Below the pieces are notes generated by a model. The model had not been told where the DNA came from. It did no database searches and saw nothing but the letters and a program-made list of their open reading frames with translations. Of a stretch of DNA of 64,000 nt, positions 12,233 to 24,728 are shown piece after piece. Numbering within the stretch: the stretch's first letter is position 1; the number at the start of each line of letters is the position of its first letter. The position numbers and the translations under genes were made by a program. Origin of the DNA: Helicobacter kayseriensis (GTDB lineage: Bacteria > Campylobacterota > Campylobacteria > Campylobacterales > Helicobacteraceae); NCBI RefSeq assembly GCF_021300655.1, contig NZ_JAJTNB010000001.1:133770-197769 (forward strand). The letters run 5' to 3'.

Positions 12233-14127
12233 ATCTCTTGAGCCTTTTTCACGATCTCTTCAACACTAATCTTAAAAAATACAAAAAGATCATCACCCTT
12301 GCCCGAAGCCCCAAAGCTATCCATTCCAATCACAACCTTTGCGTATCGATACCACTCCATTCCCCTTGAAGCTTCAATTGCGATCGTTTTATTGCGATTA
12401 CTAAGAATCGAGTCTTGATATGCTTGATCTTGCTGAGAAAACAATTCCATACACGGCATACTAACCACTCTCACAGATTTTCCCTGATTTTTTAGCATTT
12501 CAGCTCCCTTGAGTGCTAGATTTACCTCTGAACCTGTAGCCAAGAGAATAACATCAGGATTTTCAGATTCCAAAATCACATAAGCTCCCTTTTGCACTTG
12601 ATCTTTAGAAACAGGTGATAAAACTTCAAGATTTTGCCGACTTAGCACAAAAGCACTTGGAGCTTTCATCTCTAAGGCAACCTGCATGCAAGCAATATTT
12701 TCATTTGCATCAGCAGGACGAAATACCAAAAGATTGGGCATTGCTCTAAAATGAGAGAGTTGCTCGATTGGCTGATGTGTTGCCCCATCTTCTCCCACAC
12801 CGATACTATCATGCGTCCAAACATACATCACCTGTGTTTTCATAATAGAAGCAACCCTTACACTTGGAGCCATATAATCACTAAAAACAAAAAATGTCGC
12901 ACAATAAGGCAAGAAAAGTCCATAATTTGCTATTCCATTGCAGATGGCACCCATTGCATGCTCTCTAACACCAAAGTGTAAATTTCTTCCCTTAGGGAAA
13001 TCTCCTTCATTTTTTAAAAGCGTATTGTTTGAAGGCCCCAAATCTGCACTTCCGCCAACCAGTCCAGAATAACTTCTTGCAATTGCATTAAGGATCTCTC
13101 CATTGCTTACGCGTGTGGCAACTTTATCTCCTTGCTTAAATGCAGGATATTGCACTTGAGAAAAATCTGGATTTTGCAACTCTGCAATCTTGCTTTGAAC
13201 CTCTTGGCTAAGAGATTTTTTCCACTTTTCACATTCACTCATTCCCTTGGCAATGCTTGCTTCAAATGCACTTTTGACTTCTTGAGCAATCACAAAAGCT
13301 TGATCTTTCTCAAAGCCCATAAATTCTTTAGAAGCAGCCACAACTTCTGCACCTAAGGGTGCTCCATGAGTTTTATGACTTCCCTCTACTCCCACTGCAT
13401 TTTTCCCAATGACTGTATGTGCGATAATCAAAGCAGGCTTGCAACTCTCTTTGGCGCTTTTGATTGCCAAATCAATCGAATCAAAATTATGCCCATCACA
13501 CTCAAAAACATCAAATCCTTGAGCTTCAAAACGCCTAGCGATGTTTTCACTCAAAGCAATCTCAGTCCCGCCCTCAATTGTGATTTTATTACTATCATAA
13601 ATCAAAATTAAATTTGAAAGCTGATGATGGCCTGCAAGAGAGCAAGCCTCATAGCTAATCCCCTCTTCCAAATCCCCATCCCCACACAAACAATATACAA
13701 AATGAGAAATGACATTTTCTCCCAAGATTCTTTGTGCATATTTGCTAGCCATTGCAAAGCCCACTGCATTTGCCACACCCTGCCCCAATGGACCTGTTGT
13801 AATCTCAACCCCATGCGTATGCCCAAACTCTGGATGCCCTGGGGTTTTGCTGCCCAATTGTCTAAACTGCTTAAGATCCTCAAGACTCACATCAAATCCC
13901 CATAAATGAAGCAAGCTATACACTAACGCTGAACAGTGTCCCCCACTAAACACAAGTCGATCACGATTGAGCCACGAAGAATCTTGAGGGTTAAGATGAA
14001 GATGATGTGAAAGCACAACGGCAATATCTGATAATCCCATAGGAGCACCTGGATGACCGCTATTTGCCTTCTGCACCATATCTGCGCATAAAATTTTAAG
14101 CGTATTTGACATTATCTCTTTTTGCAT
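12229..14127 (-). CDS. tkt: Transketolase
   Basis: GHPGAPMGL TPP motif, 632 aa. Confidence 0.9.
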   Translation of the reverse strand: MQKEIMSNTLKILCADMVQKANSGHPGAPMGLSDIAVVLSHHLHLNPQDSSWLNRDRLVFSGGHCSALVYSLLHLWGFDVSLEDLKQFRQLGSKTPGHPEFGHTHGVEITTGPLGQGVANAVGFAMASKYAQRILGENVISHFVYCLCGDGDLEEGISYEACSLAGHHQLSNLILIYDSNKITIEGGTEIALSENIARRFEAQGFDVFECDGHNFDSIDLAIKSAKESCKPALIIAHTVIGKNAVGVEGSHKTHGAPLGAEVVAASKEFMGFEKDQAFVIAQEVKSAFEASIAKGMSECEKWKKSLSQEVQSKIAELQNPDFSQVQYPAFKQGDKVATRVSNGEILNAIARSYSGLVGGSADLGPSNNTLLKNEGDFPKGRNLHFGVREHAMGAICNGIANYGLFLPYCATFFVFSDYMAPSVRVASIMKTQVMYVWTHDSIGVGEDGATHQPIEQLSHFRAMPNLLVFRPADANENIACMQVALEMKAPSAFVLSRQNLEVLSPVSKDQVQKGAYVILESENPDVILLATGSEVNLALKGAEMLKNQGKSVRVVSMPCMELFSQQDQAYQDSILSNRNKTIAIEASRGMEWYRYAKVVIGMDSFGASGKGDDLFVFFKISVEEIVKKAQEI

Positions 14128-14179
14128 TTTTTCTCCTTGTTTTCTAGGATTTGGATTCTACATTGTCTCTTTGGAAAAC

Positions 14180-14971
14180 TCAACTTTTCTTGCGATGAAT
14201 TCCTTCGCAAACTCGCATTCCAAACAAAACAATCAACCACGAAACATAAATCCAAAGCATTCCAAACAAAACAAACGACACAGATCCATAAATTGTTTCA
14301 TAAGATCGATTGTGTGCCACATAATAAACAAAACTCCATTTAGCAATATTCCAACCCAAAGATGTCAAAAAAGTTGCAAAAAACAAAGCTTGAGGATTGA
14401 GTTTTTTATTGGCTGAAATTTTAAAAAGAAATAAAAACATCATCCATCCCACCATAATCGGGGCTAGTTGCAATAGGTAGGGAAGAAAGATATAAGATTC
14501 CCAAATCTTTCTAAATTGAAAAACAAAATAAAACAAAACACCAAAAAGCAGAGGGAACAGAGACACAATCATCCAATACAAACTTAAAGAATCAAAAAAA
14601 GTCCGAGGAGAACTACCAAAGACTTTGGAAGTGATATATTCATAGTTTCGGAAAAAGAGAATTGAGGTAAAAAGAATATAAATAAATCCCAAGATTCCCA
14701 TTTTGGAGCTTTGAATCAAAAGCGGATCTAAAAAGCGAGCAACAATCTCTGAATGAGTGGGAAGAACATTTGAGAGCACAAAGTCTTTGATTTCTAAAAA
14801 AGTATTTTGAAAATTGGGCAAAAGTAAGAGAATTGACAGCACAATCAAAAGCAAAGGAATAAAAGCAAAAACAGTATAAAAACTCAGTGATGCAGCATAG
14901 ACAAAGAGCTCATCCTCATGGGTCAAAAAACTATAAAGAGCCTTGGCTTTACAATATAAGCGTTTTAACAT
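14180..14971 (-). CDS. YihY/BrkB (ribonuclease BN-like) family inner membrane protein
   Basis: 263 aa, six predicted TM helices, and the YihY-type N-terminus (FLTHEDELFVYAASLSFYTVFAFIPLL). Confidence 0.7.
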   Translation of the reverse strand: MLKRLYCKAKALYSFLTHEDELFVYAASLSFYTVFAFIPLLLIVLSILLLLPNFQNTFLEIKDFVLSNVLPTHSEIVARFLDPLLIQSSKMGILGFIYILFTSILFFRNYEYITSKVFGSSPRTFFDSLSLYWMIVSLFPLLFGVLFYFVFQFRKIWESYIFLPYLLQLAPIMVGWMMFLFLFKISANKKLNPQALFFATFLTSLGWNIAKWSFVYYVAHNRSYETIYGSVSFVLFGMLWIYVSWLIVLFGMRVCEGIHRKKS

Positions 14972-15005
14972 TGATGAGGCCTGTTGCTACTTTGTCTCAT
15001 ATGAT

Positions 15006-15902
15006 TTACCTACATTCTTTGGCAATGCCAAGTCCCTGATGAGACAAAAGCGCTAAACTCTTTTTGATATCCATAATTTGCAAATCATACTTTTCTAACA
15101 TTTCTAAATCTTTTTGTGGTGTTTCTCCAAGCGTTGTAAGATAATTTCCCAAAACAATTGCATTGATTCCATAATCAAACATCTTTTTTTGATCCAAACC
15201 AAAAACACGCTCCCTTCCTCCTGCAATCATTAAGCGTGAATTGGGAAGATATTCCTTGGTCAATACAATACACTCAAGTGCTTCTTCTTTGGATAAAACT
15301 TCACGCTTAAGAGGTAGTGCGGGATGAGGGATGAAAAAATTGATCGGCACAGAATGCGGAGAAAGAGAACGCAAAGCTTTCAAAAGCTCGATTCGATGCT
15401 TCCATTCTTCTCCAAGCCCAAAAATCCCCCCGCTACAAAGTCCAAGCCCTGCCCTAAGAGCATTTTCACAAGTCTCAAACCGCTCTTCCCAAGTATGCGT
15501 CGTGCAGATAGAGCTAAAAAAACTCTGCGCACTTTCAAGATTGTGATTATAAGTATCGATTCCATGAGCCTTGATATGCTTCAAAGATTCTTCATCTGCT
15601 CTCCCACAGCAAGCTATTAGATGAATATCTTCAATCTCTTTTTTGATCGCTTGGGCCAAAGAGGCGACATATTCACATTTTTTAGAATCTAAGCCCCTTC
15701 CAGAGGTAACAAGACAAAACCCCACCATTCCATACTTTTTGAGCTCTCTTGCCTCAGCAATCACATCTTGAGGATTTTTATATTTATAGCGCTGAACATT
15801 CGTCTCATAATGTGCACTTTGCGTGCAATAAGCACAATCCTCACTGCACCCTCCACTACTGACATTGCTAATTGAACACAAAAAAACTTCTTTTTTCATC
15901 AC
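15006..15902 (-). CDS. bioB: Biotin synthase (radical SAM)
   Basis: CSEDCAYC radical-SAM CxxxCxxC motif and BioB length. Its start overlaps the stop of the upstream DUF5131 gene by 4 nt. Confidence 0.9.
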   Translation of the reverse strand: MMKKEVFLCSISNVSSGGCSEDCAYCTQSAHYETNVQRYKYKNPQDVIAEARELKKYGMVGFCLVTSGRGLDSKKCEYVASLAQAIKKEIEDIHLIACCGRADEESLKHIKAHGIDTYNHNLESAQSFFSSICTTHTWEERFETCENALRAGLGLCSGGIFGLGEEWKHRIELLKALRSLSPHSVPINFFIPHPALPLKREVLSKEEALECIVLTKEYLPNSRLMIAGGRERVFGLDQKKMFDYGINAIVLGNYLTTLGETPQKDLEMLEKYDLQIMDIKKSLALLSHQGLGIAKECR

Positions 15903-16645
15903 AAACCTCTCCTCTTAAAATCTTTAGGATATTCTTTCATTTCCTTGCCTTGAAACAAAGATCCATTTTCTTTCTTGCTTCTTCTTTTTCCATCACTTCC
16001 ATAAGCCCCCCATTGTTTGAAGAAGAAAGCGACTTTTTGATCTTGACATTGTTTTTGGATATTTAAAACCCATTGCTCTTGCATTGCTCTTGCATTGTTT
16101 CCGCTCTCTCCCCCTACAATTACCCAATCAATCCCATCTAAATCCAAATTCCCCAAATCATCAAGAAGTGGTTCACAAGAAAGCCATTTGACTTTTGCAG
16201 GTAAATCTGTAATTTCTTTGATTCTATGTTTTACCTTGCTTGATTCTACTGTTGTTCCAAGCCAAGCATTTTGAGGGATAGGATGAGAGAGAAAATATTC
16301 TCTCATTCTTTTTGGGCGTTTGGTGAGAATTTGGTATTGATGTTGAGGGGTATCTGTAATGACCTGCATCACTTGATCTAAAAAAGCAATATCCATTTTT
16401 TCATGAAATAAATCACTCATAGAATTAACAAAATACAAAGTTGGCTTTTTATTCTTTTTTGGTTCATCTAGTCGATGCGGAAGCATCGTGAAAGCAAAAC
16501 CATTTTTATAGTCAGGATTTCCCATCGCTTGCAAGCGTTTTGCCATTACTTCGGCATAGCAATTCTTACAACCATTGCTTACTTTGTTGCATCCAATTGT
16601 GGGATTCCAAACGCTTTCAGTCCATTCAATTTTTGTTTTCTTCAT
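15899..16645 (-). CDS. DUF5131 / phage Gp37Gp68 family three-Cys-motif protein
   Basis: The N-terminus MKKTKIEWTESVWNPTIGCNKVSNGCKNCYAEVMAKRL matches the family hallmark (TKIEWTD-TWNP-GC-x-S-GC-x-CYA) with C-x7-C-x2-C. It is paired with a TcmP gene upstream. Confidence 0.7.
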   Translation of the reverse strand: MKKTKIEWTESVWNPTIGCNKVSNGCKNCYAEVMAKRLQAMGNPDYKNGFAFTMLPHRLDEPKKNKKPTLYFVNSMSDLFHEKMDIAFLDQVMQVITDTPQHQYQILTKRPKRMREYFLSHPIPQNAWLGTTVESSKVKHRIKEITDLPAKVKWLSCEPLLDDLGNLDLDGIDWVIVGGESGNNARAMQEQWVLNIQKQCQDQKVAFFFKQWGAYGSDGKRRSKKENGSLFQGKEMKEYPKDFKRRGL

Positions 16646-17804
16646 AGCGAACCTTGTAGAGAATCTGTCCTTCTTTATAATAGTTGTAACCTAGATAAAA
16701 GGTTGTTTTTTTCTTGCGTTTATCAGAGATAAAATCTAATCTTCCTTCTTCATACCATTCTTGCAGAATTTTTCCACATTCAGAGAGTTTAACTTCTTGC
16801 GTAAGAGAAAATTTAAAAATGTCATTATTGTTCCGATAGGTCTTGAGGAACTCAGACAGATTTTTTTTAAAGTTTGAAAAAAATTGTTCCTTTTTTTCCT
16901 CAATCTCTAAATCAAAAAAAAGATTTCGGTTTTCCTTGTTATACCCTTGTCCCAAATCCTTGTCTAATTTCCATTTGATTTCCACAGCTTTCTCAAGTCC
17001 ATAAATATGTTTTGTGAGATAAAATAATGCATAATACTGTTTCTTTTCGGCTTCAATGTGGTAGCTACAGCTATAAGTATTTTCATCTCTCATTGCTTCT
17101 TTGATGTGTGTGATAAATTCAATTTGATTTTTACACTCTCCCGATCTGATGGGGTGTTCTTTGTTTGAAAAGAAGCTACAAAGGAAATCTTCCAAAGATT
17201 CACACAACAACCTATCATCTTCTGAAGTCTTTTCCTTTGCTTTTGAGAAACGATACATTTGAGCGATTGGTAAAAATAATACTATTTCATTTTTATTTCC
17301 TTCCATAAGTCTATCTATAACATTTTTGTTGATATTCTTATATCCATAAGGGTCAATAAAAATCATAGTCTTGTATCGATTTTGTTTTGTTTTTAGTATT
17401 TGAAGTATCTCTTCAAACATCTCTACATAATCTATTGAATAATAATTAACCTTGATTTTTTGGTTTTTCTCTTTTTTGTCTATATAGGTTTTTATTCTGT
17501 CAATATTCTTTTGTTGTTTATCATTAAAATAAAAACTAATCTGCTTATCTTTTTCTTCTACTAATTTATAAGCAATGTCATAAGAGAGAATAGCACTCCC
17601 CTTTTCTCCATTGTCATAAATCCCCATACCACAGCAAACATCAAATATAATAATCTCATCGCAATATTGTGTTTGAGAAAGGATTTTTAGATAAAGCCTT
17701 AGATAATTCTTATAAAAATCAAGCTTTGCCTTTGAATGATGCAATACATTTTTTTGTGTTGCTTCTTTTTTGCTTTTGTATTTTTTATCATCAATACACG
17801 ACAT
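16626..17804 (-). CDS. tcmP: TcmP family protein ('three-Cys-motif partner protein', TIGR04474-like); Rossmann/methyltransferase-like motifs
   Basis: The region HSKAKLDFYKNYLRLYL...IIIFDVCCGMGIYDNGEKGSAI resembles the TcmP core (..IAYIDLFAGPGRYKDGSKSTP..). There is a downstream IFIDPYGY (DPPY-like) motif. It overlaps the partner DUF5131 gene by 20 nt. Confidence 0.6.
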   Translation of the reverse strand: MSCIDDKKYKSKKEATQKNVLHHSKAKLDFYKNYLRLYLKILSQTQYCDEIIIFDVCCGMGIYDNGEKGSAILSYDIAYKLVEEKDKQISFYFNDKQQKNIDRIKTYIDKKEKNQKIKVNYYSIDYVEMFEEILQILKTKQNRYKTMIFIDPYGYKNINKNVIDRLMEGNKNEIVLFLPIAQMYRFSKAKEKTSEDDRLLCESLEDFLCSFFSNKEHPIRSGECKNQIEFITHIKEAMRDENTYSCSYHIEAEKKQYYALFYLTKHIYGLEKAVEIKWKLDKDLGQGYNKENRNLFFDLEIEEKKEQFFSNFKKNLSEFLKTYRNNNDIFKFSLTQEVKLSECGKILQEWYEEGRLDFISDKRKKKTTFYLGYNYYKEGQILYKVRYEENKN

Positions 17805-19641
17805 TTACACGCTCATCACTGGGGATGTTGAGGTTGAGGAAGGATTCCAAAGTGTAAGTGCCATAGCCATCGATGAAAATAGCTTTGTTTTTATCTTCTA
17901 AAATCTTTAATTCTACTTCTTTATCAATCCCCACCACACAGAGGATATCTTCACATGCAAAAAGCTTATCTTTGACAAGCTCTTCTAGTGGGATATGTAA
18001 AGGCTTGCCTGCAAAGAGTGCAAGATTCCTAGCAATATCAGAAGGAGTGATGTTGGCACTATGGGGGATGATACTTCCCTTATCACTTAGCTTTGCTTTT
18101 TCTCTTAGAGAATACACATGATAGCCTATATCTACGCTAAATTCCTCACCACTTTCATCCCTTAGCTTATCTCCTGCACGATTTACTCTCTCAATCGTAA
18201 TGTCGCTAATCTTTGGTTCACTTCTACCTAGCTTGTTTCTCACAAAATTATAGGCTGTTTTGTTTTTATCTTCTTTGATCTCTTCGGGAAGTTGGACTAG
18301 GATAAATTTACGATTCCCTCCATCTTCTGCATTGAGCTCCATTACTGCTTGTGCTGTTGTCCCACTCCCTGCAAAGAAGTCAAGGATAATGTCATCCTGT
18401 TTTGAGACCATTTCTAAGATTTTATAAACTAATTTTACAGGTTTTGGATTTTGAAAAATCCCTTTGGTTAATATGTTGGACAATTCTTGATTTGATTGAC
18501 GAGTACTTCCGAAATCTTCATATTTCCAAAATGATACTGGGGGCATTCGATCACCTGTTTCACTCCAAAAAGTTTTTCTTTGCGGAGCTTTTTTGCCTTC
18601 AGGATCTAGAAAAATTCTATTGTCATTTTCTAATTCTTTGAGATGCTCTTTTGAATATCTGGGATAAGTTCCACTTGGTGGAGTCCAAATTTGCCCATTG
18701 CCAAATGTGTATTGATAGATTGATTTTTCAGTTCCACTTTTCGCGTGGAGTGGTGTCAATAAATAATCTCCTCGATCGTCACTATCATAGTTCTTATAGT
18801 ATGCTCTTTGCTTTTCTGTTTTTTTGATTCCATGGATTTCTACTAGAAGAATGTTTTTTGCATACACTAAAATATTTTCGTGATTTGTTGAAAAATATTT
18901 AGAATCGTTTTTGATTGTATCAAGGTTTTGCCAGGCAACTTGTGCTACAAAATTCTCTTCTCCAAAAATCTCATCACACAGAATCTTAAGATTGGCTTGT
19001 TCGTTCTCATCAATAGAGACAAATATTACTCCATCCTCACGGAGCAAATCCCTAGCAAGTTTGAGGCGTGGGAGCATAAAGCTAAGCCATCCACTATGAC
19101 TTCTTGAACCCGTGATATTTCTAAAAGTCTGAAGTGTTTTGCTCTCTATTTCATTGCCTTCTTCATCAATCTCAAGTAATCCCACTTCACGCAAGATTTT
19201 TTTGTAGTCTTTTCTAAAATCATCGGGATAGATGAAATTTTCGTTTTTGGTGTTATAGGGTGGGTCGATATAGATCATTTTGATCTTTTCATAGTAGGCA
19301 GATTTGAGGATTTTTAGCACATCAAGATTATCACCGATGATGATTGAGTTCTCTGTAGATTCTCTTTCTTTGCTTCTCTCTACTTCTTCGCTTAGCTCAT
19401 ATTCTACTGGTGTGGTGTAGAGAGTATTGGCTAAGCCTTTGCCTGTGAAAGTGAGCTCATAGCCTTGAGTGTTGGAGTGAGAATCAAGTCCCAAAAGCAT
19501 AGCAAGAGCTTTGAGATTGACTTGCCCCTCGCTGAGAGTGTCAGGGAAGTGTTTTTCTAGTATGGATTTCAAGGGATTATTTTCTTTCGTGCTATCGATG
19601 ATATTTAGTCCTTTTTTTTGGGCTTCTTTTTTATCGATCAT
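17791..19641 (-). CDS. mod: Type III restriction-modification DNA methyltransferase (Mod), beta-class N6/N4 amino-MTase
   Basis: Motif IV IYIDPPYNTKNENFIYPDD precedes motif I ILDFFAGSGTTAQAV (beta permutation). 616 aa, with a 4-nt overlap to res. Confidence 0.85.
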   Translation of the reverse strand: MIDKKEAQKKGLNIIDSTKENNPLKSILEKHFPDTLSEGQVNLKALAMLLGLDSHSNTQGYELTFTGKGLANTLYTTPVEYELSEEVERSKERESTENSIIIGDNLDVLKILKSAYYEKIKMIYIDPPYNTKNENFIYPDDFRKDYKKILREVGLLEIDEEGNEIESKTLQTFRNITGSRSHSGWLSFMLPRLKLARDLLREDGVIFVSIDENEQANLKILCDEIFGEENFVAQVAWQNLDTIKNDSKYFSTNHENILVYAKNILLVEIHGIKKTEKQRAYYKNYDSDDRGDYLLTPLHAKSGTEKSIYQYTFGNGQIWTPPSGTYPRYSKEHLKELENDNRIFLDPEGKKAPQRKTFWSETGDRMPPVSFWKYEDFGSTRQSNQELSNILTKGIFQNPKPVKLVYKILEMVSKQDDIILDFFAGSGTTAQAVMELNAEDGGNRKFILVQLPEEIKEDKNKTAYNFVRNKLGRSEPKISDITIERVNRAGDKLRDESGEEFSVDIGYHVYSLREKAKLSDKGSIIPHSANITPSDIARNLALFAGKPLHIPLEELVKDKLFACEDILCVVGIDKEVELKILEDKNKAIFIDGYGTYTLESFLNLNIPSDERVNVVY

Positions 19642-22598
19642 TTATTCTCTCCTTTCATTTGTTCTCCTTGGATTGTGATATTTTGAAGCAAATTTATAAG
19701 ATCTTGTCTATTGATGCGTGTTTTGAAGCAGATCTTCACACTCTCACCCAAATGCTCTTGAAGTTTTTGGAAAAACTTCTTTGCATAGTCGATCTTTTTT
19801 TGTTCTGTGGGTGGGATATCCCTCTCGCTTTCATAGCCTTTTGTTTCACAAACAAGGAAAATTTTTTGATTATCTTGAGTGTTGATGAGGTAGGCAAAGT
19901 CTGGCTCATAGTTTTTGTAAGGCGTAGGGATAGAGAATTTGGGGAGTTTGGCATAGACTTGAATTGTGAGGTCGTTGATATGTTTAGGATCTTGGGTGAT
20001 GGCCGTAAGCTCAATTTGACTATCATAAACGACCTTATCATAGAGATAGTGCTCTTGTGGCTCACTCTTTTCATCAATATGACGTCCTAGCTTTTCACAA
20101 AGGATACTCTCTTTTGGCTTACCTTGTAAATCATAGAGCAAATCTTCACTGCTAATTTGAGTTTGAATGAAATCATAAGAGATACTTTGAATAATGCTGG
20201 AGTGGATTTCATCTTGGATGATGGTTTTGAGTTCTTGGAAAGATTGCTTAGGGTTTATAAAGAATTTGTTTTTATCAAGGACTTGATAGACTTGAAGCAA
20301 AAAGCTAAGAGGGAGTTTCTCGCTCTTAGCAAACTCAATGAAGTTATTCATCAACAATGACTTATCTGTGTAAAGCTTGGTAGATAGCACTTCTTCTTTA
20401 GTATTTTCGATTTTACTGGTTTGGGAATTATAAGTCTTGGAAATAAGGATGGTAGTTTCTGGGAGAATAGAGAGGGAATTGAAAGCCCTACTGATATTAT
20501 CCATAAGCTCCTTAGTTTGAATATCTTTGTAGATGATTTGTGCTTTTTGATTGATACTTTTCCATAGAGTAAAAAATTCTTCTGCAAGTTCTTTTTTTAT
20601 CCCTGCTGTGAGCTTTTTTCTATTGGCATCATTGGTTTGGTTGCGTTTGTTGGAGGAGGGTTTAAAGAAATCTAGGGCTCTTAAATAGCTTTCCTCTCTT
20701 AGAATTTCTAAAAAGTCTTCTTTTTCATCTCTAAGGATTTCGTGGATTGGTTTTATGCACTTATAAAATTCTCTTGTGGTTGCCTCAATTGCCTTGCTTC
20801 TTTTTCTTAGATGATAGATAAAGTCTTCGGCTTCATCGGGGGTGAAATAAAGTTGAGAGCAAAGAATGTTTTTGTGGAGGGTTTTGTGATTGAAAACAAA
20901 GCTTGTATCTTCAATCTCCTTTTGTAGCTCTTCGATGAACAATCCTTCTTCACCGCTGATAAGTACATCAAGTGCATTGATATCATAGAAGAGATTGTCA
21001 TCTCCATTGCAATAAGTGTAGGTGATTCGTTTTCCCTCTTGATTGACAGCTAATCTCAGCCCTCTTCCAATTTGCTGATGACGACTTGTAGAAGTGGCAG
21101 AGCTTGCAAGTTTAACAAGAGTAAAAATATTGGGGTTATCCCATCCTTCTTGCAAAGCCCAAACGCTAAAAATGAATTTTAGAGGGGTTTTGATAGATAG
21201 AAGCTTTTCTTTTTCTTCTAGAATAAGTTTTACTCCTTCAGCTTCTTTATCATCTTTTGTCCCTTTATCTCCACTAAAATATCCTTCTGCTACGCAGAGT
21301 TCTCCTTTGTCGTTGAAGTCTTGGGCTAGATAGGATTTGTAGTCTTCTGAGAGGTTGGGGTTTGCAAGAATTTGTTCTCGTTTTTGAATATAGAGTTTTT
21401 CAAAGATAGTTTTAATTCTTGGAATTTCTCCTCTAAAATCATCAATATGAGGGATAAAGAACAAACAAAGTGCTTTTATTCCTTTTTTAAAAAGTTTTTC
21501 TTCTTTTTCAAAATGCAAATCTATAGCTTTGGCAATGAGATTTGATAGTTGAGAATCATCTAGCTCATAAGAAGTAGAGAGTTTATGGACTTCTTCACTA
21601 TTACTTAGAATGATAGAATTTGCTTTGCCTCTTAGGATTTCTTTACCCTTCCATTGTGGATAATGCAATTTCTCTCCAATATCCTCCCCAAAAAATACAC
21701 TTGCCTTGCGCGCAATATTCTCAAGCACATAAGAAAAGGTCGCATATTTTTCTTTGGGGTGGCTTGAAATAAGTTTAGGAGTGAGTGTATTTTCATAGAG
21801 AGTATGAACATTGATTTGTTTGACAAGGTATTCTCTAAAAGCACTAATACTATCAAGACAATAAACAAGATTGCTTAGATTGTGGGGTTCTTCTGTGGGG
21901 AATGTTGCACCAAAGCGAAAATAAAGCGTTTGAAAACTTTGAAATACCTTATCAAACTCCTCACCTTTAAGCAAATGAGGCTCATCGATAAAGCAAATAG
22001 GTTTAAGATCAATAATATTGTCCAATATTGTCTTATTGTTAAAAAGTTTTTCATTTTGACGTCGCAAAAGATTTGGCTTGCCTTTTTTCTCCTCGCCCCC
22101 TTTATCAATTGAACTATTCGTGAGAATCAATACAGAGAGCTCATCTTCATTTTTGATATAGCCATTGATGATTTGACTCAAGGATTTCTCATCATTATAA
22201 TAATAAGCTTTGAGATGCTTGGAATATTGAGTATAAAAATACTCTTTTGTAAGATTAATATTTTGCTTAACAGATTCGGCAATGGCCTTACGCGGGACAA
22301 AAATAATAAATTTGTTTTGAAAATAATGCTTGTGGAGTTCAAAAATCGTATTGAGATAGGTAAAAGTTTTGCCCGTCCCTGTTTCCATCAAAACATCAAT
22401 ATTTTTTCTCTCACCAAGAGTTTGGATAGGCTGAGGGTTTTGCGTATAAAAAGCCTTAAAACACTCCTGTAAACTTTGAACGCTATGCGTATCAAAGTCA
22501 AAGTTTTTTAGAAGTGCAATGATATTATTAATACAATCTTGCTGATATTGTTGCGTTTCAAAAATCATTGAAGATCCTACTTGAAAATTAAATCGCAT
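19638..22598 (-). CDS. res: Type III restriction enzyme Res subunit (SF2 helicase + C-terminal PD-(D/E)XK endonuclease)
   Basis: Walker A METGTGKTFT, motif II CFIDEPHLL, the QxxGRGLR context (QQIGRGLRLAV), and a C-terminal nuclease motif YEPDF...LVCETKG. 986 aa. Confidence 0.85.
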   Translation of the reverse strand: MRFNFQVGSSMIFETQQYQQDCINNIIALLKNFDFDTHSVQSLQECFKAFYTQNPQPIQTLGERKNIDVLMETGTGKTFTYLNTIFELHKHYFQNKFIIFVPRKAIAESVKQNINLTKEYFYTQYSKHLKAYYYNDEKSLSQIINGYIKNEDELSVLILTNSSIDKGGEEKKGKPNLLRRQNEKLFNNKTILDNIIDLKPICFIDEPHLLKGEEFDKVFQSFQTLYFRFGATFPTEEPHNLSNLVYCLDSISAFREYLVKQINVHTLYENTLTPKLISSHPKEKYATFSYVLENIARKASVFFGEDIGEKLHYPQWKGKEILRGKANSIILSNSEEVHKLSTSYELDDSQLSNLIAKAIDLHFEKEEKLFKKGIKALCLFFIPHIDDFRGEIPRIKTIFEKLYIQKREQILANPNLSEDYKSYLAQDFNDKGELCVAEGYFSGDKGTKDDKEAEGVKLILEEKEKLLSIKTPLKFIFSVWALQEGWDNPNIFTLVKLASSATSTSRHQQIGRGLRLAVNQEGKRITYTYCNGDDNLFYDINALDVLISGEEGLFIEELQKEIEDTSFVFNHKTLHKNILCSQLYFTPDEAEDFIYHLRKRSKAIEATTREFYKCIKPIHEILRDEKEDFLEILREESYLRALDFFKPSSNKRNQTNDANRKKLTAGIKKELAEEFFTLWKSINQKAQIIYKDIQTKELMDNISRAFNSLSILPETTILISKTYNSQTSKIENTKEEVLSTKLYTDKSLLMNNFIEFAKSEKLPLSFLLQVYQVLDKNKFFINPKQSFQELKTIIQDEIHSSIIQSISYDFIQTQISSEDLLYDLQGKPKESILCEKLGRHIDEKSEPQEHYLYDKVVYDSQIELTAITQDPKHINDLTIQVYAKLPKFSIPTPYKNYEPDFAYLINTQDNQKIFLVCETKGYESERDIPPTEQKKIDYAKKFFQKLQEHLGESVKICFKTRINRQDLINLLQNITIQGEQMKGENK

Positions 22599-22661
22599 TG
22601 TATCTTTTGTTATCTTGATATATTTGCATTTTTTAAAATTATCTATATCTCAAGGATCATT

Positions 22662-23900
22662 ATGCAAAAGCCTCTTAGTGTTTTTGAGCTCAATGCACAA
22701 ATCAAATCCATCTTGGAAGAAACCTTTTTGTCCGTATTTGTTGAGGGTGAGATCAGCAATCTCACTATCCATTCAAGTGGTCACATTTATTTTAGTCTCA
22801 AAGATTCTCAAAGCTCTATTGCTTGCGTCCTCTTTAGGGGCAATGCCCAACACCTCAAACTTGAGCTCAAAGAAGGCCTTCATGTCGAAGTGATAGGAGG
22901 ACTTAGTGTCTATCCTCCAAGGGGGAATTATCAAATTCTCTGCAAGCAAATCCTTTCCTCAAAAATCGGAAATCTCGCACTTGCCTATGAAAATCTCAAG
23001 CAAAAACTCCACTCTCAAGGCTATTTTCAAAACAAAAAACCCCTCCCCCCTTTTCCCAAAAAAGTTGCACTCATTACTTCTGCTACAGGAGCAGCCTTGC
23101 AAGATATGCTCAAAATTGCAAACAAACGCTGGAGATTGACAGAATTTATCATCATCAACACTCTAGTGCAAGGAGAAGGAGCAAAACTCTCTATCGCTCA
23201 AAATATCGCCTTGGCCGATTCTCTAGAGGGCATTGATTGTATTGTATTGGCTCGTGGAGGGGGAAGCCAAGAAGATCTTTGGGCATTCAATGAAGAAATG
23301 GTGGCAGATGCCATTTATCATGCCAAAACCCCCATTATTTCTGCTATTGGGCATGAAAGCGATGTGCTTATTAGCGATTTTGTAGCGGATTGTCGAGCTC
23401 CAACTCCAAGTGGAGCTATGGAGCTTTTACTCCCAGATCAAGTGCAATGGCTCTATGCCCTTGAAGAATTAAGAGAAAAATTTAGCCAAGCTTTTAGGAA
23501 AATTTTGGGGCACAAATCCCTTCTTCTCTCATCCCTTCAAGATCAATATAAATTTGCCAACCATTCTTATAAAATCCAACTTCAAGAAAAAGAATGCCAT
23601 CAAATCAAACAAATGCTTCAGCTCAAAATCCAGACTATCTTAAAAAACAAAACACAAGAATCCCATATGCTCATCTCACAATTTCACTCTTTTCAACTCT
23701 TCCAGCATTTTGAAAAAACGCTTGATTCTCTCCAGCACTCTCTTGCTCTACACAACCCATCACAAAAATGCAAAAATGGCTATGCTCAAATTACAAAAAA
23801 TGGAAAAGTGTTTAATTTGGAAGAAATACAAGAAGAAGAGATTTTTGAGCTTACAAGCCCAAAAATCACCATCAAGGCCCAAAGACTACCAAAGGACTAA
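22662..23900 (+). CDS. xseA: Exodeoxyribonuclease VII large subunit
   Basis: OB-fold N-terminus (MQKPLSVFELNAQIKSILEETFLSVFVEGEISNL) and the catalytic region. The start was taken at the internal Met of the 439-aa ORF. Confidence 0.85.
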   Translation: MQKPLSVFELNAQIKSILEETFLSVFVEGEISNLTIHSSGHIYFSLKDSQSSIACVLFRGNAQHLKLELKEGLHVEVIGGLSVYPPRGNYQILCKQILSSKIGNLALAYENLKQKLHSQGYFQNKKPLPPFPKKVALITSATGAALQDMLKIANKRWRLTEFIIINTLVQGEGAKLSIAQNIALADSLEGIDCIVLARGGGSQEDLWAFNEEMVADAIYHAKTPIISAIGHESDVLISDFVADCRAPTPSGAMELLLPDQVQWLYALEELREKFSQAFRKILGHKSLLLSSLQDQYKFANHSYKIQLQEKECHQIKQMLQLKIQTILKNKTQESHMLISQFHSFQLFQHFEKTLDSLQHSLALHNPSQKCKNGYAQITKNGKVFNLEEIQEEEIFELTSPKITIKAQRLPKD

Positions 23901-24728
23901 TTCGACATTTTTAGAATCTTCAAAGCTTTTTGAAGATCCATCTAAGCTATATTCGATAGCCAACCCATATTTCACATCAGAGCGTCCCTCTTCACTAATT
24001 TTGAAACTCTGATAGATGCTTGTAGGAAGCTTAATCACTCCAACATTTGGCACTGTCGCCCTTGGAGCAATATTTTGATTGACTTGCAACTCCCCTACAA
24101 GCTTTCCATTAAAATAAACTGCAATTTGAGAAACTTTCATAAATTGAGCAGTTTTATTGACAACACCGATTGTGACTGCACTACGCCCAAGCAAAAAAGA
24201 TTGAGCCGATAGCATCAAATCTTCTTTTTCAAAACTCACAGAGGGCATTGACTTTTTGGAAAGAATAAATCTTGCAGGACTATCCCCTCTTTTATTTTTG
24301 ATATACATATCTGCACCATTATCAAGCAAAAGCTTAATCATCTTGCCATTTTTATTCATAATCGCATGATACAAAGGAGTATTGCCTTGAGAATCTTGCA
24401 CATTGACCTTTGCGCCATTACCAAGAAGAATCTTGGCCAATGTCACATCATTGACCTTTCTTCCTGTAACTTTTAACAATGCTGTTTCTCCATAACTCTT
24501 TGCATTGATATCAGCACCACGGCTAATCATAAGCTCCACAATATCTCCCCATCCACTACGACAGGCATTATAAAGAGGAGTCATTCCCCTCCAGCGTGAA
24601 TTGAGATCTCCTCCTAGCTTGATTCCCTGTCTTACAGTCGTATAGTCATCGCTGAACAAATAAGCATCCCAGCGATTTGCCATCAATAGTCCCAATGTCA
24701 CACAACACAAAAACACAATGCGTCTCAT
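23886..24728 (-). CDS. Secreted ankyrin-repeat protein with C-terminal domain of unknown function
   Basis: Signal peptide MRRIVFLCCVTLGLLMA. At least three ANK repeats (GMTPLYNACRSGWGDIVELMISRGADINAK; GNTPLYHAIMNKNGKMIKLLLDNGAD). About 130 aa of non-ANK tail follow. Confidence 0.65.
   Translation of the reverse strand: MRRIVFLCCVTLGLLMANRWDAYLFSDDYTTVRQGIKLGGDLNSRWRGMTPLYNACRSGWGDIVELMISRGADINAKSYGETALLKVTGRKVNDVTLAKILLGNGAKVNVQDSQGNTPLYHAIMNKNGKMIKLLLDNGADMYIKNKRGDSPARFILSKKSMPSVSFEKEDLMLSAQSFLLGRSAVTIGVVNKTAQFMKVSQIAVYFNGKLVGELQVNQNIAPRATVPNVGVIKLPTSIYQSFKISEEGRSDVKYGLAIEYSLDGSSKSFEDSKNVELVLW

Follow-up and report, generated by a model that had tools for sequence, protein, structure and literature searches.

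No immune system is more common in bacteria than restriction-modification (R-M), which tends to be viewed as a closed unit of two or three genes. Type III systems such as EcoP15I and StyLTI combine a Res subunit, carrying helicase motifs and a C-terminal PD-(D/E)xK nuclease, with a beta-class Mod methyltransferase in which DPPY precedes FxGxG, the two being encoded by adjacent, overlapping genes. The EcoprrI type I R-M locus additionally embeds an accessory gene, encoding the ATP-binding cassette (ABC)-ATPase-like anticodon nuclease PrrC. A further arrangement, in which a TcmP gene (TIGR04474) is followed by a DUF5131 gene (PF07505; Gp37-Gp68), is listed by PADLOC as the candidate defence system PDC-M30 and defined there as a stand-alone two-gene unit. 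Here, we analysed a 64,000-nucleotide stretch of Helicobacter kayseriensis (contig NZ_JAJTNB010000001.1, positions 133,770 to 197,769; hereafter, the window), in which such a pair instead forms the tail of a type III R-M operon between the genes bioB and xseA. We tentatively interpret the region—with a joint confidence that falls a little short of an even chance—as a 6.7-kb strain-variable defence island, in which res and mod are translationally coupled to a TcmP/DUF5131 pair that would add a methyl/radical-type mark or lesion to DNA.

A type III R-M operon tailed by a TcmP/DUF5131 pair

A preliminary description of this DNA had placed four minus-strand genes between bioB and xseA, and the corresponding open reading frames (ORFs) lie exactly there (Table 1). 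The first two resemble EcoP15I and StyLTI in all the features named above. Res was matched by PF04851, PF00270, and PF19778 as well as by the PADLOC model REase_III (E 4e-107), and contains GTGKT at residue 74 (22365–22379), DEPH, and a PD...ExK motif at residues 899–920 (19839–19904) within the PF19778 endonuclease domain, bearing out the superfamily 2 (SF2) helicase plus PD-ExK nuclease originally assigned to it. For Mod (PF01555, E 4e-42; PADLOC MTase_III, E 1.4e-156), the reported succession of motifs was likewise recovered, with DPPY at residue 126 (19255–19266) ahead of FAGSG at residue 423 (18361–18375). By these features, the two genes would constitute an ordinary, if divergent, type III system. 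It differs from EcoP15I and StyLTI in its res-then-mod order, in the two extra S-adenosylmethionine (SAM)-enzyme genes of the same overlapping array, in a Res that scores below the equivalog cut-off of the curated type III endonuclease family NF012027 (412.4 bits versus 564), and in that neither gene contains a homopolymer or simple-sequence tract suggesting phase variation. Res thus seems to represent a divergent type III subfamily, common to Campylobacter fetus. Indeed, the cassette recurs with unchanged gene order in C. fetus subsp. venerealis, where res encodes 962 aa, mod 619 aa, tcmP 362 aa, and DUF5131 251 aa, at amino-acid identities to the window of 50%, 50%, 26%, and 68%, respectively. 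The placement of res before mod, flagged early on as atypical, therefore does depart from the EcoP15I paradigm, yet it is shared by the C. fetus cassette.

The two remaining proteins proved to be what had been proposed when subjected to profile searches: the 392-aa protein reached 118.5 bits against TIGR04474 (cut-off 53) and the 248-aa protein matched PF07505 over its full length (339.5 bits versus a cut-off of 28.9; E 1.4e-101). Both PDC-M30 models were also strongly matched (M30A, E 3.6e-88; M30B, E 1.1e-114) by the adjacent genes in the canonical TcmP-then-DUF5131 order. The pair can hence not count as an unrecognised module, having been catalogued already under TIGR04474/PF07505 and as PDC-M30.

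As anticipated, the genes overlap by 4–20 nt; read from the sequence, the overlaps amount to 4 nt between res and mod (ATGA), 14 nt between mod and tcmP, and 20 nt between tcmP and DUF5131. While the notion of one overlapping array holds, its end at DUF5131 does not: the bioB ATG (15899) shares a base with the DUF5131 stop codon (tgATG), so that the array runs on into bioB, whose ribosome-binding site (AGGAG) sits within the DUF5131 coding sequence.

Docking of the pair behind R-M genes across bacteria

Clustered at 50%, the TcmP family numbers 3239 representatives among 1.84 billion proteins. In a census with one genome per species, we collected 80 TcmP loci from many phyla, the best of which was only 39% identical to the TcmP of the window. 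In 76 of these 80 species-level loci, DUF5131 comes right after TcmP on the same strand, either abutting or overlapping it, supporting the view of a conserved two-gene module; three of the four exceptions end at a contig end and the fourth is locus L030. No third gene was universal to the pair among the 80 loci. The pair closes a co-oriented gene chain in 41 of them, and the commonest families in co-oriented chains are R-M methyltransferases (N6_Mtase, Eco57I, MmeI, and type I).

Upstream sequence exceeded 3 kb in 58 loci; 12 of these have a type I, IIG, or III R-M gene on the same strand, no more than four genes upstream. Given that R-M genes account for well below 1% of a typical genome, this amounts to a strong enrichment, measured against that background frequency rather than a matched control. 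With a profile-seed search, an R-M component was detected in the retrieved flanks of 19 of the 80 loci. Type IIG genes directly precede the pair, in its orientation, in L001, L004, L012, L033, L037, L058, and L074; in L046 and L047, they are four genes away, also upstream. Type I genes stand immediately before the pair in L065 and L069, the latter having an R subunit upstream of the pair and a methyltransferase just downstream, and a canonical type III system stands upstream in L073 (Pseudomonadales), there in the order mod then res. Mod-like methyltransferases of unconfirmed type occupy position −1 in L022 and −3 in L005, and in four loci outside the census (L172–L175), the module is preceded by a type II M.CfrBI-like/R.CfrBI pair. 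The pair thus follows R-M systems of types I, II, IIG, and III. Its position is downstream on the same strand, usually 0–50 nt from the R-M gene or overlapping it, and the association was seen with these four R-M types in at least five phyla.

Elsewhere, the neighbours of the pair are unrelated genes or candidate defence genes (UvrD/RecD-like helicases, T5orf172, PDC-S05). In Sinorhizobium meliloti, TcmP (SMa2243) and the Hna defence helicase gene (SMa2245) are both listed among the genes upregulated in a nolR+ strain (PMC12445080, Table 1). In L046 (2920–9925) and L047, the pair comes after a five-gene co-oriented array, with an MmeI-type IIG gene and, between it and the pair, genes for PDC-S05 (a Fic-like candidate), a helicase of the DEAD/ResIII kind, and a protein of the T5orf172 (MUG113) kind; this looks like a composite defence operon. 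In five Bacteroidales loci (L011, L045, L051, L067, and L068), a second TcmP paralogue (PDC-M41A, ~308 aa) is encoded directly upstream of a PDC-M30-type pair, in some of them with conserved ORFs of ~214 and ~180 aa without a Pfam family further upstream, an arrangement that may be part of a larger system.

The pair is also found on mobile elements. TcmP relatives were found on plasmids, including a Hymenobacter plasmid with an annotated tcmP/Gp37-Gp68 pair flanked by an integrase and an IS4 transposase, and tblastn uncovered copies in Gordonia phages. In phage Easley (Table 1), gene 39 encodes a TcmP-like protein annotated as ‘methyltransferase’ (motif FVDPFGY) and gene 38 a DUF5131 protein (E 5e-89); their position next to the repressor and integrase genes would be typical of lysogenically expressed defence genes. 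A published account of prophage defence in phage CarolAnn concerns RexAB-like genes and is unrelated to the pair. Viral contigs contained at least 590 DUF5131 matches. Adjacent partners came from one protein cluster in 34 of 69 viral DUF5131 loci, many of them positive with the TcmP profile, which returned 19 candidate partners at E < 1, with E ≤ 4e-10 for nine; that a peptide-pattern scan of IMG/VR for TcmP gave none was a sensitivity artefact, as the profile recovered the partners.

Taken together, the idea that the pair is an accessory module of R-M holds insofar as it recurs behind type I, II, IIG, and III systems, and fails insofar as this would make it R-M-specific. Given that 61 of the 80 loci have no detected R-M component in the flanks retrieved, and that the pair occurs in prophage lysogeny modules, these distributions argue for a module that is autonomous and frequently docks onto R-M operons, rather than for an R-M-specific subunit.

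Origin and strain variability of the island

DUF5131 homologues with 66–78% identity are common in Helicobacter and Campylobacter. In a Helicobacter from a gut metagenome, an M.CfrBI-like methyltransferase and RE_CfrBI precede TcmP (profile E 2.5e-32) and DUF5131. The corresponding chromosomal site of H. macacae has a D12 methyltransferase and a 366-aa protein upstream of an 88%-identical DUF5131, and lacks TcmP. TcmP and DUF5131 are therefore not strictly obligate neighbours. That the 366-aa protein might be a diverged form of TcmP was not borne out (E 0.19 in hmmsearch; probability 0.1% in hhalign).

The two halves of the H. kayseriensis pair point to different sources. Its TcmP is of the PDLC04566 type, with the nearest relatives outside close strains being 42–43% identical (one named Sulfuricurvum) and Bacteroidales among the more distant ones. 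Its DUF5131, in turn, is 75–78% identical to Helicobacter copies and groups with those of Helicobacter and Campylobacter, and the partners of such DUF5131 copies in the two cases examined (C. fetus and L172) are TcmP proteins of the C. fetus type, PDLC04568. From these affiliations, the pair looks chimeric.

To follow the island among strains, we compared the window—whose BioB is ~100% identical to H. kayseriensis BioB—with L081 (flanks 91–95% identical) and L083 (97%), both of which have a ~99–100% identical BioB; exact-sequence look-ups of the window's own BioB and TcmP returned nothing, and genomic context was therefore read from near-identical homologues. Between xseA and bioB, each encodes a 497-aa SLFN_AlbA_2 protein, without a match in PADLOC, on a 1.65-kb cassette that replaces the island interior. 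Homology to the window in blastn was lost at 16054 and 22392. The breakpoint at 16054 is the same in both strains, which keep the last ~150 nt of DUF5131 together with the bioB ribosome-binding site, and L081 also retains the presumed res promoter region and the first 69 res codons (98–99% identity, ending just before Walker A). There, the alternate cargo adds a 107-aa ORF, consisting of these 69 codons fused to foreign sequence; the L083 contig stops before this position. Because remnants of the island ends persist in both strains, the island was replaced there, and not newly inserted in the window. The insertion between bioB and xseA suggested in the preliminary description holds, with different cargo occupying this site in L081 and L083.

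In more distant relatives, at 83–86% BioB identity, xseA is not beside bioB, and unrelated genes lie upstream of the latter. L085 (86% nucleotide identity) retains mod–tcmP with the same 14-nt overlap. The four-gene island was hence ancestral at this site, its interior (16055–22391) having later been swapped for another cassette in L081 and L083, and it is dispensable and exchangeable in H. kayseriensis. The xseA–bioB site as such behaves as a cassette-exchange hotspot.

The island is flanked by neither att-like direct repeats nor terminal inverted repeats, the repeats detected being short and at chance level; that it stems from a transposon or an integrase event is thus not supported. The gene with the lowest GC content is tcmP (29.3%, versus 36% for the window). 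As for expression signals, the gap shared with xseA, previously given as 60 nt, measures ~93 nt instead (res ATG at 22568, xseA start at 22662). This count uses the second ATG of the res ORF, which is probably the true start (yielding 976 aa), since it is preceded by AGGA and the NF012027 alignment starts at residue 10. In a scan for consensus sigma-70 promoters and intrinsic terminators, sites were no more numerous than in shuffled sequence, and an Rfam scan of 14000–24500 returned no match. Expression of bioB may depend on island sequence (15891–15960). Next to xseA, a 280-aa ankyrin-repeat protein is encoded on the minus strand (23886–24728), as it is in L081; its best matches, Ank effectors of Legionella, are weak.

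Table 1 Features of the xseA–bioB site and related loci (window coordinates unless a locus is named; aa, amino acids)
Feature	Position	Strand	Description
bioB	15006..15899	-	297 aa; core gene abutting the island; NF006308, 444 bits
DUF5131 / Gp37-Gp68	15899..16645	-	three-Cys protein, 248 aa; predicted radical-SAM fold
tcmP	16626..17804	-	392 aa; predicted SAM-dependent amino-methyltransferase fold and C-terminal winged-helix-like part
mod	17791..19641	-	type III beta-class amino-methyltransferase, 616 aa
res	19638..22598	-	type III restriction subunit, 986-aa ORF; SF2 helicase and C-terminal PD-(D/E)xK nuclease
Strain-variable segment	16055..22391		most of res, whole mod and tcmP, 5′ four-fifths of DUF5131
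res / xseA divergent intergenic region	22569..22661		presumed operon promoter region
xseA	22662..23900	+	exonuclease VII large subunit; core flank on the other side; TIGR00237, 414 bits
Alternate cargo at the xseA–bioB site	L081 7987–9817; 3′ part in L083 1–278		
Gordonia phage Easley genes 39 and 38	L170 4959–6826	convergent	between immunity repressor and integrase

Predicted enzymes and possible function

Structure prediction (predicted local distance difference test score, pLDDT, 88) returned the RNA methyltransferases RlmJ (23S rRNA m6A2030) and Trm1 (tRNA m2,2G26) as the best matches of TcmP, arguing for an RlmJ/Trm1-like amino-methyltransferase. The protein has the class I SAM methyltransferase fold with a motif I GxG and a motif IV D-P-[PYF]-[YG], and its invariant residues—D55, G59, and G61 (motif I), N94-D95 (end of strand 2), and D151-P-Y-G-Y155 (motif IV)—fit a predicted active amino-methyltransferase whose SAM-binding site is apparently intact. 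At the sequence level, TcmP matched neither the RlmJ nor the Trm1 family; Pfam returned no family for it even at E 10, and a profile search of the PDB nothing relevant. It further differs from both enzymes by its extra C-terminal winged helix-turn-helix (wHTH)-like domain and by its radical-SAM neighbour gene. In TcmP homologues, the C-terminus carries a PF22560 wHTH domain, which suggests binding to duplex DNA.

For DUF5131, the model (pLDDT 85) combines a partial TIM-barrel fold with a predicted cluster-binding Cys triad (C19, C26, and C29, invariant in 29 sequences; CX6CX2C, CNKVSNGCKNC) and a GGESG motif corresponding to the SAM-binding GGE, and thereby predicts a radical-SAM enzyme closest to spore photoproduct lyase. 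RadicalSAM.org likewise places DUF5131 among its radical-SAM subgroups, in Megacluster-5-2, with spore photoproduct lyase adjacent in 5-3 (PMC9477430). Compared with spore photoproduct lyase, which acts on DNA, and viperin, which acts on nucleotides, DUF5131 is only ~9–11% identical, spaces its cysteines as CX6CX2C instead of CX3CX2C, and is much shorter at 248 aa. To TIGR04471 (radical SAM mobile pair protein A) it is related without being a member (108.4 bits versus 355).

On the explanation we favour, the pair would be a self-contained, horizontally mobile two-enzyme module. TcmP would select and N-methylate, or at least position, a base in a nucleic acid, probably DNA, and DUF5131 would carry out hydrogen-abstraction chemistry on the base so handled. 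Docking at the 3′ end of R-M operons would provide for co-expression and co-transfer with R-M, to which the pair might add a second, R-M-independent layer, in the form of an extra DNA mark or a lesion-type effector. We infer this substrate, the two-step chemistry, and the defence phenotype from the predicted folds and genomic settings; functional coupling of the pair to R-M is plausible, and the pair probably represents a portable supplement to DNA-based immunity. The two-step logic has a precedent in wybutosine synthesis, where the methyltransferase Trm5 installs an N-methyl group and the radical-SAM enzyme TYW1 then elaborates the same base; TYW1 and TYW4 are among the fold matches.

Several observations weigh against this explanation. 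The solved nearest relatives of TcmP act on RNA, not DNA, and DUF5131 lacks the canonical radical-SAM cysteine spacing. As the flanks retrieved for the majority of the census loci mentioned above contained no detected R-M component, the pair does not need an R-M system beside it; the R-M types that do precede it have no common protein architecture, and a physical complex with Res/Mod is not implied. The H. macacae DUF5131, at 75% identity, occurs without an adjacent TcmP. Transcription of the island as a single operon is deduced from the gene overlaps, and the searched literature contained no experimental study of the pair.

A more specific proposal is that the pair installs a novel, radical-SAM-dependent hypermodification on DNA bases, such as an elaborated N-methylated adenine, cytosine, or guanine, and so serves as a portable upgrade of all R-M types. 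We regard this as doubtful in such detail. The mark would harden self-DNA against phage-borne methyltransferases or add a second layer of discrimination.

Alternatively, the pair may have no functional link to R-M and be independent mobile or defence cargo that came to lie behind R-M genes merely through the clustering of defence genes. In naturally transformable Campylobacterota, recombination would compact such cargo into tight arrays, and the highly conserved DUF5131 gene would act as an anchor when cassettes recombine and are exchanged. The many pair loci that lack a detected R-M gene and adjoin unrelated or other candidate defence genes fit this account, as do the swap breakpoints inside res and DUF5131 in H. 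kayseriensis, the differing R-M genes upstream of an 88%-identical DUF5131 at one site in the H. macacae group, and the seemingly chimeric pair of the window, which joins a PDLC04566-type TcmP to a Helicobacter-like DUF5131. What makes us consider it rather unlikely is that the placement is non-random—downstream, on the same strand, and mostly within 50 nt or overlapping—and repeats itself across at least five phyla and four R-M types, and that Helicobacter and Campylobacter have kept the order of the four genes while their proteins diverged to 50% identity.

Another explanation likens the pair to PrrC, as a guard or back-up effector that is silent while R-M works; once a phage disables restriction, the pair would modify or damage tRNA or rRNA, or make an antiviral nucleotide, and thereby abort infection. 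EcoprrI offers a parallel in that an accessory gene in or next to an R-M operon is co-inherited with it. In L069, the pair sits between type I restriction and methyltransferase genes much as prrC does in its hsd locus, and an association with any R-M type is to be expected of a general restriction monitor. The RNA methyltransferases among the best structural matches of TcmP fit an RNA target. TcmP also evolves much faster than DUF5131, in line with contacts to phage or partner proteins: across 71 pairs, DUF5131 was the more conserved protein in 98.7% of 2485 comparisons (median pairwise identity 54.6% versus 35.5% for TcmP). Yet the proteins are unrelated to PrrC, and the pair has no nuclease or toxin/antitoxin-like domain, no identified sensor or R-M-binding domain, and no known physical link to R-M proteins. 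With most copies lacking a detected R-M gene to guard, and the wHTH domain of TcmP homologues suggesting a DNA duplex as ligand, we deem this role unlikely.

A housekeeping role tied to biotin, with DUF5131 as a radical-SAM helper of BioB, might be read from the translational abutment of bioB and DUF5131 and from their common radical-SAM fold, but is highly improbable and effectively refuted by the strain comparison, as strains with a ~99–100% identical BioB retain nothing of the pair except the 150-nt remnant, relatives at 83–86% BioB identity have unrelated genes upstream of bioB, and a neighbouring bioB was neither a criterion for choosing the 80 pair loci nor noted at any of them.

Returning to the favoured reading of a coupled pair acting on DNA, we found no functional study of TcmP, DUF5131, PDC-M30, PF22560, or a radical-SAM enzyme with R-M in the searched literature, nor was recurrent docking behind type I, II, IIG, and III systems described there. 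What appears to be new is the conserved res–mod–tcmP–DUF5131 cassette in Campylobacterota, along with the general docking of the pair behind all R-M types; the assignments of TcmP and DUF5131 at the level of predicted folds are likewise new here.

The docking of the pair offers a concrete, testable hypothesis for thousands of uncharacterised proteins, with the cassettes of C. fetus and H. kayseriensis providing natural with/without comparisons. Should the pair turn out to act as a guard, the PrrC principle would gain a second example. If, on the other hand, it writes a DNA mark, this would introduce new chemistry into epigenetic self/non-self discrimination, with a bearing on the interpretation of methylomes and on transformation barriers in Helicobacter and Campylobacter.

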